Shown: positions 5,714 to 51,233 of the stretch, piece by piece
How the letters are laid out: each line of letters opens with the position of its first letter
Position numbering within the stretch: position 1 is the stretch's first letter
Source of the DNA: Eledone cirrhosa
Taxonomy: Eukaryota
NCBI GenBank assembly: GCA_964016885.1
Contig: OZ024742.1
Location: 205,592,001-205,656,000 of the forward strand
Direction of reading: 5' to 3'
Length of the DNA: 64,000 bases
Translations under genes and position numbers: made by a program
The notes under the pieces: model-generated
The model's input: only the letters and a program-made list of their open reading frames with translations
The model's database searches: none
What the model was told of the DNA's origin: nothing

Positions 5714-6092
5714 TTTCTTTTGCAAGGTTTTTTATATGAAATCGTGTCGAAACAAATATTGTTATACTTGGGGAGGGTCATAAAAATGGCATAGACATTA
5801 CAATACAATACAATACAATAGGAGGGAACATAATAATAGTACCACTAATGATGTTGCAGATGTGCAACGAAAGAACTTTGATAGACTATATATATATATA
5901 TATATATATATACATTTATATATATATATTTTTAACCATTGGTCAGTCAATGATAAACATTGATTGTCAAATAAATTAACTATGGAGATATAAAAGATAC
6001 AGAAGCGAAAACCAACCAAACAGTGAGTGTGTTCTGTTATTATTTCTGGCAATATTATTACAACAATATGACCCTCCCCAAGTATAACAATA
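5714..6092. mobile_element. Short fold-back Penelope-like insertion (family of 41237-44597)
   Basis: Inverted copies of ATGACCCTCCC(C)AAGTATAACAATA at 5756-5780 (-) and 6068-6092 (+). The plus arm is homologous to 44230-44541; the minus arm carries the tail. Confidence 0.85.
5840..5883 (+). ncRNA. Hammerhead ribozyme, core-mutated
   Basis: TACCA CTAATGA T GTTGCA GATG TGCAAC GAAA GAAC TT TGATA, with a G-to-A change in CUGANGA. Confidence 0.65.
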
Positions 6093-7160
6093 TAGGTATA
6101 TATTTCACTATATGTAAAACTTCCATGGGAAGGTTGCCACACAAATGATGACTTAAGGACTAATGCAAAGTTTGAAGAAGAGATTAATTAAAGATAATCA
6201 AACTACAATCCAAAGAATTTTAAAGATCTTACACTTAACAGTTCCCAGGCTATGGGTGTCTGAACATCAGAATGCTCTTTGCCTTATATATAAATGACAT
6301 TTTTTACAAATTCATTGGCATACCCTCTCCTTGTAATAGAAAAAAACCTTATAACACACACACTGAGGAATTGAGATAATATAGAATATATTTCCAAACT
6401 TTACTATGTGATGTACATTTCAGTACCTTTTGTGTTTTTCTTATGTTTACGTAGCTATATAATCTGGATTTATGGAAGGCACATCTTTAGATTTAAAATA
6501 AGTTGTTACAATAGCATAACATTTACTCTTTGGATATTAACATGACATAGTTCTTTCTATTAAAGGACTACTACTATGTGTCACCAAAAATAGTCATTGA
6601 CTGTCAGATAGTCTGTTGGGGATCCATAGTTCACTCATTTGATTTAAACAAGAATTTGTGTGCATGTGTAAAAACTAAATATTTCATACTAAATCAAGTA
6701 ATTTGAAATAATTATATTGATAAGATATATATTGAAACAAAAATAATGTTTAAATGTGATTAGAAGCCAGCTAATCTAGGAACAAAATCCTCAATTTCAT
6801 AATTAACAGTCAACATTAAAATGAGTTAGGTGATGGAGCAAATGTATACGTTAGATTTTTATTCTTTTCTAAATGGTCTTCGTATAGAAAAGCACTATAA
6901 ATGAAATTGGAATGAAGTTCTCTGTATTGATCAGTAACTTGAGATGTAATATGGAGTGGGAGAACATCAAATAACTGTAAAACAAGCTTTACTACTCCAT
7001 CTATTATAAATAATATCAATTACAGATATTCTAAACACTTTTACATATAGATTCATAATAATCTTTAAGCTTTTCAGCATATGAAGGAGTCAGCAGTAAT
7101 TGCTTTTACAAGAAATTTTACTATAAATGTTACTATAAATAGTTTTAGTTAAAATAATGC

Positions 7161-7500
7161 AGCAATAATAATTGTTTCTACGTTTGGCACAAGGCCAGCA
7201 ATTACCCAGTGCATTACTGGTACTTTATTTTATCGACCCCGTAATGATGAAAGGCAAAGTTAACCTCGGCGGGATTTGAACTCAGAATGGTAAGGGTCAT
7301 AACTCTATACGTCAAAGCATGGCGTCGACGTATAGAGTTACGGCCCTTGCCATTCTGAGTTCAAATCCCAGCAATAATAATTGTTTCTACTTTAGGCACA
7401 AGGCCAGCAATTATCCAGTGCATTACTGGTACTTTATTTTATCGACCCCGTAAGGATGAAAGGCAAAGTCAACCTCGGCGGGATTTGAACTCAGATCGTA
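7161..7500 (-). mobile_element. Two tandem tRNA-derived SINE copies with an internal inversion
   Basis: Two copies of the 19619 SINE body (B box GTTCAAATCC on the minus strand); 43-bp inverted repeat at 7271-7313 / 7327-7369. Confidence 0.85.
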
Positions 7501-47782: not shown

Positions 47783-50632
47783 TCATCATCATCATCATCA
47801 TCAACGTTTAACGTCCGTGTTCCACGCTTGCATGGGTTTGGACGGGGGTAGTCCCACTTGAGGCAAGAGTGATTGTCTTGCTCGCATAGGACTGTCTGGC
47901 AGGTTTTCTACAGTTGGATGCCCTTCCTAACACCAACCACATTTACAGTGTGGGTCTGGGAGGTTTTTACCGTGTTGCCTACACGGCCACATTACAGCGT
48001 GGACTGTGTGTTTTTTTGTCGTGACACCTACACGATCTCATTTGTTTCGGCCCGGATGGCGCGGCACCAACATAACTTTACATAGGACGGGGTGGTGTGG
48101 ATGGGGTGGGGGTGGTGGTGGTGGGACGGGGTGTATTTTGTTAGAGATGCCTACTGGCAAGGCGGGTCTTCTCTGTTACTGAGTACCGCCAAAGGTCTCG
48201 GTCCAGTGACATTGTCTTGGAGAGGTGTAAGTGTGTGAGGTCGGAGTTTATCAGCTCGTCCCAGGTTTTTCTAGGTCTGCCTATTCCGTGGCTACCGTCT
48301 ATCTTTATTGCCCTGCACTTTGTTATACAGCTATCGACTTTCATGCGCATCACGTGTCCATACCAACGTAGCCTTCTCTCGAGTAAACAACATCTGATCC
48401 CTCTTATCTCTAATTTTTTCCTTAGTTCGTTTATGCTTTGCCGTTCACGTATATTACTGTTACACATCCAGCGGAGCATGCAAGCTTCGTTCCTCTCTAG
48501 TCTGCGTATATCCTCTGCACACAATGCCCAGGTCTCACTGCCATGCAACATTGCTGTTCGTATGCAGGCATCGTACAACCTGCCTTTCATTTTTAGGGAG
48601 AACCCTTTAGCAGCTAATAGTGGTATAAGCTCTCTGAACTTTTTCCAACCAGTTCTGACTCTAGCTACAGTACTTTCAGAGCACCCTCCCCCACTGCTGA
48701 TTTTATCGCCCAGGTAACGGAAGCTGTCCACTATTTCTATAGAACCCTCTGCGCAATTGAAAGAGCTAGTATTGTGTGGGCGCTTGCTGCTACTTATTGC
48801 ACCAGAACACCGGCCACATGTAAAATCTATGTTCTTAGTTAGCTTACCTGTGATCCCACTACATCTTTTATGCACCCATACTTTGCATTTAGGACACAAA
48901 ATGGAGTTTCTACCTACGCCTTTCCTACACACCGAGCACGACCATTTCCCAGAAGGGACCGCCGCCTTGTTTTCTTTCCTACAAACTAGAACTTTGGTCT
49001 TAGCCAGGTTAATTTTAAGTCCTTTTGACTCTAGGCCGTGCTTCCATGTTTGGAATTTCTTCTCTAGCTCGGCCATTGATTCCGCTATGAGTGTCAGGTC
49101 GTCTGCGTATAGGAGTTCCCATGGGCAGCCTGTCTTGAACTCCTCTGTTATAGCCTGAAGGGCAATAATAAATAGTAGGGGGCTGAGAACAGAGCCCTGA
49201 TGGACGCCAACTTTTACGCTAAACTCTTCACTATTCGTTGTTAATTCTAACCTTGCTGACTGTTTCTTTATACATGGCTTGTATAGCCCTCACAAGCCAT
49301 TCGTCAACGCCTAGTTTTCTAAGAGCCCACCAGATAATGGAGCGGGGGACTCTGTCGAAGGCTTTCTCCAAGTCGACAAAAGCTAAGTAGAGGGGTTTAC
49401 CTTTAGCTAGGTACTTCTCCTGTAGTTGTCGTACTATGAAAAGAGCGTCTGTGGTACTTTTGCCTGACACAAACCCGAACTGCATTTCATCTAGGTCAAT
49501 TCTCTCTCTGATTAGTTGCGCTATTACTTTTTCTGTGACCTTCATGACCTGGTCGATTAATTTAATGCCTCTATAGTTACTCCTATCTAGGGCGTCTCCT
49601 TTACCCTTATAACAGTTAACGATGATGCTGCTATGCCAGTCCTTCGGAACAACCCCATTCTGTACGACTTGGTTAACTATGCGGGTGACCATGGTGTGTC
49701 CCACCGTGCCAGATGCCTTCAGCATCTCAGCAACTATTTCCGAAGGCCCAGCCGCCTTACCTGTCTTCATATCCTTGATTGCCTTACTTATTATACTCCC
49801 CTCGACTAACACTGCTGGTCCCTCTATTGGGTCGACATGGGGGAGACTGTCTTTCTCCCATTTATTCTCCTCATTTAGTAGCCTTTCATAGTGACACTTC
49901 CAAGCTGCCTTCTTATCAGTGTCGGTGATGGCAAGTATGCCATCATCGTTAAGTACACACTTCTCCCCGACAATATCACGGTTTTCCTTGACGCATTGCC
50001 TAGCAATCCTGAACACCTCACGTTTTTGGTCATCGCGTTGTAGGACATGCTTGAACTTTCTTTCCTCAGCTTCCCTTCTTGCTAAGTACACTTCTCTCCT
50101 AGCTTCCCTCCTGGCCACTTGATAGTCTACTCTACTTCCCCATCCCGCCATACTTTCCAAGCCTGCTTTTTGGCCTTAATTGACTCCTCCACCTTACTGT
50201 TCCACCACCATGTTACTCTCCTCCTGCCTACAGGCCTGCTCCAGCCACAGACTTCGTCTGTGGCCAACAGCAGGTTTGCTTTCAGAAATTCCCACTGTCC
50301 CTCTATATTGTCCGACTCTAAGTGTTCTTCCTTACTGTCGAAAGCATCAAGTAATATGTTTTGAAATTTATTTTTGGCTGTGGGGTCCTTTAGCTTCCAT
50401 ATTTTTCTCCTGAGGATAGTCCTCTTCTGCTGTCGAGTACGTCTCGACCTGACTATGAGGTCGCTAATTATCAGTCTATGTTGGGAGGTGCATTCTTCAT
50501 GGGGGAGGGATTTAGTGTTTACAACAGACACTCTGTCACGTCTTCTGGTAAGGATATAATCTACCTGGCTTGTGTGTTCCCCGGATCTATAGGTGATCAG
50601 GTGATTGTCACGTTTTTTGAAGTTAGTGTTAC
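47783..50632 (-). mobile_element. 5'-truncated RTE LINE copy with frameshifts
   Basis: ORFs 50127-50630, 49231-50160 and 48141-49076 are collinear with the intact copy; 2-nt deletion near 49232 and 1-nt deletion near 50130; (TGA)n tail. Confidence 0.95.
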
Positions 50633-50749
50633 ATATATATATATGTATATATATATATATGTATATATATATATATGTATATATATATATATGTATATAT
50701 ATATATATGTATATATATATATATGTATATATATATATATATGTATGTA

Positions 50750-51233
50750 TATTGTTATACTTTGGGAGGGTCATGTTGCCAATAAGAAACACACGCACCA
50801 GTTGCTTTCACTTCAATTTAATTTATTATATATTTATAAATTTACAAATTTATAAATTTCTGGTTGGTTGGTTGGTTCCACAACCAGATAGTTGTTTATA
50901 TATATATAGTCATAGTTCTTTCGTCACACACTCTGTGACCTCTTCAGTGACTGGGGATTTCTTTCTTCGTTTCTGTGCCTTTCCTTTCTTCTATCCTACG
51001 CCATTTTGTTTGTGTGTGGGTTGCGTGCTCAGTTTGCGCATGCGCCACATCCGGGTGTCTGTGTGTGTTTGTGTTCATTGTAAATTTATAAATATATAAT
51101 AAATTAAATTGAAGTGAAAGCAACTGGTGCGTGTGTTTCTTATTGGCAACATGACCCTCCCAAAGTATAACAATATCGGTTTCAACACACGATTTCAGAT
51201 AAAGAATCTTGCTAAACAAATTCAGAAACGAAA
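50750..51233. mobile_element. Short fold-back Penelope-like insertion (diverged subfamily)
   Basis: About 98-bp inverted arms at 50750-50847 / 51078-51175 ending in ATGACCCTCCCAAAGTATAACAATA; tail at 51176-51231; (AT)n flanks. Confidence 0.88.
50908..50952 (-). ncRNA. Type I hammerhead ribozyme
   Basis: Minus strand: AGTCA CTGAAGA G GTCACA GAGTG TGTGAC GAAA GAAC TA TGACT. Confidence 0.8.

Follow-up and report, generated by a model that had tools for sequence, protein, structure and literature searches.

Head-to-head insertions in the window

The window analysed here, a stretch of 64,000 nt from Eledone cirrhosa (assembly GCA_964016885.1, contig OZ024742.1, forward-strand positions 205,592,001 to 205,656,000), contains four insertions, at 5714-6092, 23010-23217, 41237-44597 and 50750-51233, where an earlier note made from the sequence alone had placed them. 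Such insertions consist of paired copies, truncated at the 5' end and set head to head, of a Penelope-like element (PLE), a retrotransposon with a C-terminal endonuclease (EN) that is highly abundant and was active recently. They share a 25-nt motif with seven copies in the window (minus strand: 5757-5781, 23010-23034, 41238-41262 and 50750-50774; plus strand: 6068-6092, 44517-44541 and 51151-51175) and 0 in 100 shuffles. The motif is simply the start of the reverse transcriptase (RT)/GIY-YIG open reading frame (ORF), encoding MTLPKYNN, and the tail that follows it in some arms corresponds to ORF codons 9-27. As the note described, one arm of each insertion ends in ...AACAATA and passes into AT-rich sequence, and the opposite arm carries a tail in the three two-armed copies. 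Unit coordinates take as their origin the first base of the start codon within the motif, as it stands in the 3' pseudo-long terminal repeat (pLTR).

Insertion 3, from the young subfamily A, is a 3.36-kb palindrome (41237-44597). Its tail-less arm (41237..42893, minus strand) covers unit -1648 to +25, with a 1-nt deletion near 42201, and its tailed arm (42892..44597, plus strand) covers -1641 to +80; the arms show 0 substitutions between them over 1,645 nt and are joined at -1648/-1641, with a 2-nt overlap, at the YVDD codons of the RT. On the plus strand, the tailed arm comprises the 3' third of the ORF (42892..44036), with the RT thumb, a CX4CXXC linker and a predicted GIY-YIG endonuclease with CCHH residues; a CGCATGCG palindrome (44160-44168); a AAAATGGCG box (44243..44251); a minimal type I hammerhead-like motif (44294..44327; CUGACGA, 7-bp stem II, GAAA), mirrored at 41452-41485 on the minus strand; the 25-nt motif (44517..44541), that is, the start codon and codons 1-8; and a 56-nt tail (44542..44597).

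The other insertions are shorter. Insertion 4, from subfamily B, joins a tail-less pLTR arm (50750..51077, minus strand; hammerhead-like motif at 50913-50947) to a tailed arm (51078..51233, plus strand) of 98 nt plus the tail from 51176. Insertions 1 and 2 belong to subfamily C. In insertion 1, the tailed arm (5714..5782, minus strand) consists of a 26-nt motif and a short tail of the +66 to +71 class described below, and the tail-less arm (5783..6092, plus strand) spans the pLTR between the AAAATGG(C) box and ORF nt +25, with a hammerhead-like motif (5845..5878, plus strand) whose core is mutated to CUAAUGA. Insertion 2 has a tail-less arm (23010..23205, minus strand) with its 5' end at the predicted hammerhead cut site and capped, as the note reported, by a 12-bp inverted repeat, a 12-nt inverted copy of the arm's own 5' end (23206..23217, plus strand); no tailed partner was seen.

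An (AT)n/(ATAC)n target tract lies to the left of insertion 3 (40900..41236, continuing further left), and similar tracts occupy 44598-44850, 50630-50749 and 51234-51288. Very long arrays of the same repeats are found at 29600-40900, 45400-47900 and 52300-56400. By the rule applied below to the flanks, AT-repeat made up 27% of window positions, about four times the sampled background, so the window alone could not have revealed a preference for AT targets.

Fixed ends and single tails across the genome

The exact motif occurs 45,944 times in the genome (3.0 Gb, 1,796 contigs), compared with 0 for a control; 18,949 copies continue into the tail and 21,803 into TATA, together 40,752. The ends are fixed, as the note had it; there are more than two end positions, however, and a few insertions are tailed at both ends.

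In an unselected sample, the surroundings of the first 100 motifs on contig C1, 34 of 35 head-to-head pairs had exactly one tail, the 35th consisting of an internal pLTR and a tail-less far end. The pairs spanned a median of 563 nt (range 104-3,870 nt), in agreement with the earlier proposal that short palindromes resembling miniature inverted-repeat transposable elements (MITEs) arise by retrotransposition. An AT-repeat flank was present at 49 of the 57 tail-less and 40 of the 43 tailed ends, as compared with 6.9% for the background, which extends the (AT)n association to the genome; two of the three tailed ends lacking such a flank were internal pLTRs.

Subfamily A provides exact anchors for 1,649 tail-less and 1,489 tailed ends. 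We sampled 60 of the first 61 tail-less ends (the other being L111) and 20 tailed ends without a listed partner. Among the 60, 44 belonged to two-armed insertions, 15 were single and one was complex (L145, left out). The partner end was tailed in all 43 visible cases, at +79-83 in 33 and at +66-71 in 10 (hand-curated coordinates), so the approximately 42-nt tail of insertion 1, which had been attributed to decay, belongs to a recurrent class. A tail-less anchor cannot find both-tailed insertions, and a directed look yielded four (L182, L201, L204 and L233); conversely, no both-tail-less insertion was confirmed among candidates from position lists. Two further candidates for these categories, L202 and L203, were rejected because each consists of separate insertions. 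The 20 selected tailed anchors had a tail-less partner in seven cases and no partner in 10.

Contigs from three other DNA samples showed AT loose ends at the same +25 or +80 places, as well as strand-switch joints. Paralogous empty sites were usable for only 3 of 124 insertions, each diverged and each with an AT run, too few to gauge AT expansion, and target-site duplications (TSDs) are unreadable because the flanks are (AT)n. At one locus (L110, G000:C28:36025500-36030000), a second copy of some 200 nt of flank, covering the empty site, lies upstream of the insertion.

Arms, joins and the route of integration

The note had proposed a stereotyped two-ended integration of a PLE, conserved across diverged subfamilies, and this is borne out in all three. 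We think it probable that each insertion results from two target-primed reverse transcriptions, started on opposite strands of (AT)n and templated by one RNA source, followed by a microhomology join. We infer the enzymatic steps from the end structures and by analogy with an anole PLE protein, which cuts and extends both strands, starts reverse transcription at two sites bounding the tail, prefers AT-rich targets and has been modelled as a dimer (Frangieh 2024, PMC11167929). The protein, probably as a dimer, would bind an RNA that ends, on its 3' side, in the pLTR followed by ~80 nt from the start of the next ORF, and its GIY-YIG domain would nick both strands of an existing AT-repeat, leaving AT ends that could pair with AUAU/CUAU words at the two start sites. 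One nick would prime at +25, giving no tail, and the opposite one at +80 or ~+68, giving the tail. The length copied would vary between cDNAs, the shortest reaching 5 nt and the longest several tandem units. Pairing of 1-6 complementary nt would then bring the two cDNA 3' ends together in a head-to-head join, with gaps filled in and, in some cases, templated inserts added. A near-perfect palindrome would be the outcome if the two copies ended alike, whether at the 5' terminus of the RNA (near -288) or at a minor hairpin natural to the template.

Two observations concern the templates of the arms. First, six insertions have a partner arm of just 5-20 nt, formed by the far end of the tail, inverted and followed by (AT)n (L121, L134, L135, L162, L164 and L168), and in three more the partner starts inside the tail (L124, L146 and L151). 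The tail-only partners require priming at +80, because the tail-less arm holds no template for them, and exclude pure fold-back as the sole maker of these insertions. Second, the arms of 38 pairs overlapping by at least 150 nt, a set that includes 13 loci picked from the protein list, several of them for symmetry, differed by 52 substitutions in 48,185 nt, as compared with ~245 expected for random family copies, and shared 67 variants. Both arms therefore derive from one source or were homogenised later.

The joins use microhomology and show no polarity. Of the 29 joins free of inserts, 17 overlapped by at least 2 nt (P 2e-5 or less), inserts were present in 22 of 51 joins, some of them mapping artefacts, and almost every junction was unique. 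Three loop-free palindromes (L108, L109 and L152) are centred on self-complementary hexamers, as suits the annealing of two ends. The note had also stated that the tail-less arm is always the longer and carries the spacer. This holds for the three two-armed copies in the window; among the 44 young two-armed insertions, however, the tail-less arm reached further in 27, less far in 11 and equally far, within 5 nt, in six, which is a bias (P 0.014) and not a rule. At joins on natural mini-hairpins, the loop lay on the tail-less and tailed arm in seven cases each in subfamilies A and C, and in 13 and 11, respectively, in B (hand count).

Symmetric joins are in excess, with six of 44 within 5 nt compared with 0.5 expected (permutation P 1e-5). 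Four of these six fall between -279 and -300, a region in which the 5' ends of tail-less arms are also concentrated (8 of 34 in the range -450 to -14, P 0.002). The cluster is located just upstream of the AAAATGGCG box and downstream of the CGCATGCG palindrome, both kept in subfamily B, at -240 and -280, as in A. We take the former to be YY1-like and the latter NRF1-like, and the region is a candidate internal promoter at which transcription may start. Joins at natural mini-hairpins that keep the loop were found at 30 loci of subfamily B and 16 of A and C, versus 1 and 0 at two control positions, both in family A; B is several times more abundant than A. Of these 46 loci, 40 combined a tailed and a tail-less end, one was both-tailed and five had one motif unseen. 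The YVDD-codon junction seemed a strong hot spot as well and was rejected, the copies on C4, C6 and C28 having been selected by the query and the exact palindrome occurring only twice in the genome. Loci L121, L127, L159, L182-L184 and L194 have 5' ends or inserts recurring near unit -1407 to -1427.

These hot spots bear directly on a different origin for the second arm, which is possible although we judge it rather unlikely: a long cDNA snaps back on its own microhomology, copies itself towards the 3' end and meets a short opposite-strand cDNA, so that the second arm is mostly copied from DNA. Intramolecular snap-back explains the joins at natural hairpins, with loops of 3-6 nt, at least as well as two primings do, and it would also account for the excess of symmetric joins, the near-identity of the arms and the local snap-backs seen beside the join in L122 and at window 23206-23217. 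It does not predict loop-free palindromes on GATATC/AATATT, a loop on either arm or the strong asymmetry, in both directions, of most joins. Moreover, two primings would still be needed, and only the template of the second arm differs from the two-priming reading.

Several other points count against two primings on one RNA. Of the 38 pairs with arms of unequal length, 11 have the longer arm on the tailed side, and on a single RNA the synthesis of that arm would have to displace or pass the other copy. The shared variants could also stem from one arm copied off the other, two RNAs of one locus, gene conversion or assembly polishing. The four both-tailed insertions break the one-tail rule, and an inverted partner was missing from 15 of the 60 tail-less ends and from 10 of the 20 tailed ends selected. 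Additionally, the anole start site did not differ between strands (Frangieh 2024, PMC11167929), so nothing known would enforce one tail per insertion.

Another route is a symmetric, two-tailed intermediate from which the endonuclease removes one tail by cutting the element's own AACAATAT site, an 'EN-mediated resolution' of the kind suggested in the parts of Craig 2021 considered here. We regard it as improbable. The tail-less end does lie at an AT-like word inside the element, both-tailed insertions exist in small number, and the Drosophila enzyme, as cited in PMC11167929, needs the tail for cleavage. Nevertheless, partners of 5-20 nt of tail and a second tail length (+66-71) fit separate primings better, and the positions mapped to the tail borders by Frangieh were RT starts and not cuts (PMC11167929).

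Still less probable is a palindrome made before integration, whether by self-priming on an antisense transcript (Arkhipova 2013) or by retransposition of palindromic master copies as a whole. Palindromes at inverted junctions would suit it, as would the pair L182 and L183 (G000:C1:36.13-36.15 Mb), which lie 10 kb apart with the same -68/-1427 junction and long-arm 3' ends at +70 and +25, respectively; here a whole inverted unit was possibly recopied locally. However, junctions are almost all unique, and a sense template is indicated by the 5' truncation together with 3' ends that, in both arms, are fixed on the sense strand. Finally, although long perfect inverted repeats near microsatellites mis-assemble readily and short copies look like MITEs, an assembly artefact or a true DNA transposon is largely refuted and hardly credible, since the fixed end point differs between the two arms, RT/EN coding stretches of all lengths occur in them, and other samples show the same ends and strand-switch joints.

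The 5' end of insertion 2 raises the question of whether hammerhead cleavage sets boundaries. Only nine symmetric joins coincide with the predicted cut, six in A and three, including insertion 2, in C, and the six in A also fit an AT/TA overlap. None involved B arms (five matches versus eight for a control pattern), although B has the best stem I, and no sampled family-A 5' end lay exactly at -189. We therefore rejected the cut as a general 5' boundary; that cleavage set the 5' end of insertion 2 itself is a weak and rather doubtful lead.

The element and its relation to known systems

From a tandem array on C2 we read a 4,129-nt unit with a 1,210-aa ORF. A protein search of the same genome scored 106 of 41,425 candidates, all 99-100% identical and many in tandem, and the subfamily B protein is ~60% identical to that of A. 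The ORF contains the motifs PPKF, DKSG, DVVSLYP, GAAIG and YVDD, an Asn-rich tract upstream of the RT (aa 245-412, 49% Asn), the linker CTNRKCIIC, with seven residues to the next Cys, and, at aa 1098-1194, residues (VVYSIRC..C..YIGET, R, H, H, E, N) that match GIY-YIG/CCHH by eye in Craig 2021 Fig. S2. A homolog, P0045, matches Pfam GIY-YIG at 6.6e-7, and the C-terminal domain appears from its residues to be a GIY-YIG endonuclease with CCHH. Pfam scans of P0001 and P0002 and a PDB sequence search of P0002 gave no match. An AlphaFold model of aa 430-1195 (pLDDT 92) retrieved telomerases as the top four Foldseek and top 14 VIA rows, with Z 15.0 and a root-mean-square deviation of 3.7 over 361 aa against human telomerase reverse transcriptase (TERT). 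The RT is thus, by its modelled fold, telomerase-related and is encoded by a single ORF, which places the element among EN+ PLEs. The nearest named homolog is a hypothetical protein of Octopus vulgaris (69%); in the same species, a dynein regulatory complex subunit 6-like isoform (P0081) contains a 74%-identical piece of the PLE protein, through exonisation or annotation error.

The pLTRs of all three subfamilies carry the hammerhead-like motif (CUGANGA/stem II/GAAA), which, judged from its sequence, appears to be of the minimal dimer type in the part of PMC4209133 compared. Rfam gave no match at the gathering threshold, and the tail RNA folded no better than shuffles. In one tandem array (L211, G000:C1:181304000-181313999) every unit has the identical internal deletion (-456 to -338), implying that whole arrays copy a variant unit. 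Copies of one subfamily sit in the AT flank of another at L064:9143-9226, L208 and L113, so the elements cluster. The window also contains non-LTR retrotransposon ORFs at 59913-63236 (-), 48141-50175 (-), 51290-51730 (+) and 19893-22579 (+), the first of which is open over 1,106 aa and has an AP endonuclease and an RT followed by a PHD-like finger.

Between RT motifs 3 and 4 there are ~65 extra residues (P0002 aa 655-790; L105:5566-5973), common to 84 homologs. The RT3-RT4 distance is 129 aa in the element and 124-136 aa in all 85 proteins, of 93 scanned, in which both motifs were found; by eye, the selected representatives of Craig 2021 Fig. S1 have ~58-60 aa in canonical rows, 82 in Naiad-Amil and 116 in human TERT. 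In the model, this fingers insertion is helical and confidently predicted. It appears telomerase-sized, and its likeness to the insertion in fingers domain of TERT is one of size only. Our literature search, from which most subscription papers and Repbase were out of reach, turned up no C-terminal-EN PLE with a fingers insertion; Fig. S1 shows selected representatives only, and the lineage may already be in Repbase under another name.

The linker suggests a resemblance to Nematis, which in the rows of Craig 2021 Fig. S2 compared has a C-terminal GIY-YIG with CCHH and a short CX2-5CxxC linker, like the CX4CXXC found here; two Nematis rows of Fig. S1, however, have an RT3-RT4 distance of ~60 aa and not 129. 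Neptune shares the linker zinc finger, CCHH, microsatellite bias and hammerhead, and differs in a linker spacer of ~25-30 aa (7 aa here) and, in the rows compared, in lacking a fingers insertion; the presence of that insertion sets the element apart from both clades. The (TA)n preference of Neptune, Hydra and Naiad is found here as well. Penelope/Poseidon lack the linker zinc finger that is present here. Hydra elements, shorter than 3 kb, lack CCHH and have DKT and a CxCX5C linker, whereas this one has CCHH, DKSG, CX4CXXC and 4.1 kb. Naiad/Chlamys have an N-terminal EN and no canonical hammerhead, as opposed to a C-terminal EN and a hammerhead motif. MITEs have matching terminal inverted repeats and uniform length, whereas the ends here differ by the tail; and non-LTR retrozymes, as tandem or monomeric units, are bounded by hammerhead cuts, whereas the 3' ends here fall at ORF positions +25/+80. 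With its fingers insertion, the lineage may represent a PLE clade that has no name yet and that bears on how PLEs and telomerase are connected.

Tentatively, and with more doubt than attaches to the two primings themselves, we suggest that an unnamed, widespread C-terminal-EN PLE lineage with a telomerase-sized fingers insertion integrates as an asymmetric dimer, with one RNA, two fixed starts, opposite AT-repeat strands and a head-to-head join. If true, a single mechanism would cover the PLE tail, the inverted repeat and retrotransposed MITE mimics, and templates would occasionally have a 5' end set by hammerhead cleavage in vivo.

This architecture is already known: an inverted copy, one tail, (TA)n and two RT start sites have been published. 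Craig 2021, in the parts considered, describes a truncated copy in inverted orientation, a tail that is often found at a single end, and a (TA)n bias tied to the CX2-5CxxC finger. A close counterpart is the canonical unit of endonuclease-bearing PLEs, Pen2a_Av of Adineta vaga (PMC3846280; PMC8557442 Fig. 2), where the sections compared show partial-tandem pLTRs with the first ORF codons (12 in rotifer Penelope, extended by the tail to 22; PMC3846280), an inverted 5'-truncated copy, a tail that is frequently confined to one end, junctions with palindromes or microhomology, and an Asn-rich ORF insert. The tail is longer here, 56-60 nt (or 42-46) versus 30-40; there are about 46,000 ends, with (AT)n flanks and an unreadable TSD, and the Asn-rich tract lies upstream of the RT. 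Poseidon of Anolis carolinensis (PAc; PMC11167929) shares fixed, tail-bounding ends in the ORF start, AT-rich targets, a pLTR hammerhead and tandem loci; its starts lie 111-118 nt into the ORF, with the start codon inside the ribozyme, as compared with +25, +66-71 and +80, and a ribozyme 190-220 nt upstream, here, and its clade lacks the linker zinc finger. Inverted pairs and the one-tail rule are not treated in PMC11167929. Related PLE work includes PMC13282606 and, in the part considered, bioRxiv 10.64898/2026.07.22.740005. The formation of tandem and inverted PLE copies and microsatellite targeting are described as open in the sections of Craig 2021 compared and are unvalidated in Frangieh 2024 (PMC11167929).

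Our literature search, in which most subscription papers were outside reach, found no two-priming model or one-tail counts for PLE inverted pairs. New here are the shared arm template, the 5-20-nt tail-only partners and the microhomology joins without polarity. The family offers young insertions by the thousand, nearly identical, with ends exact to the base and with the 1,210-aa ORF intact, so these rules can be counted and need not be deduced from a handful of cases. The single tail of each insertion, the shared template source and the lack of polarity at the joins limit the possible models and yield direct predictions for an in vitro assay. In practice, short palindromes from this family can be misclassified as MITEs in their thousands. 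A mechanistic parallel outside PLEs is LINE-1 twin priming, in which one RNA is primed twice on opposite target strands and the products are joined by microhomology. There, the two cDNAs copy non-overlapping parts and the second primer anneals at variable internal sites, whereas here both starts are fixed near the 3' end, and the arms consequently overlap and form palindromes.

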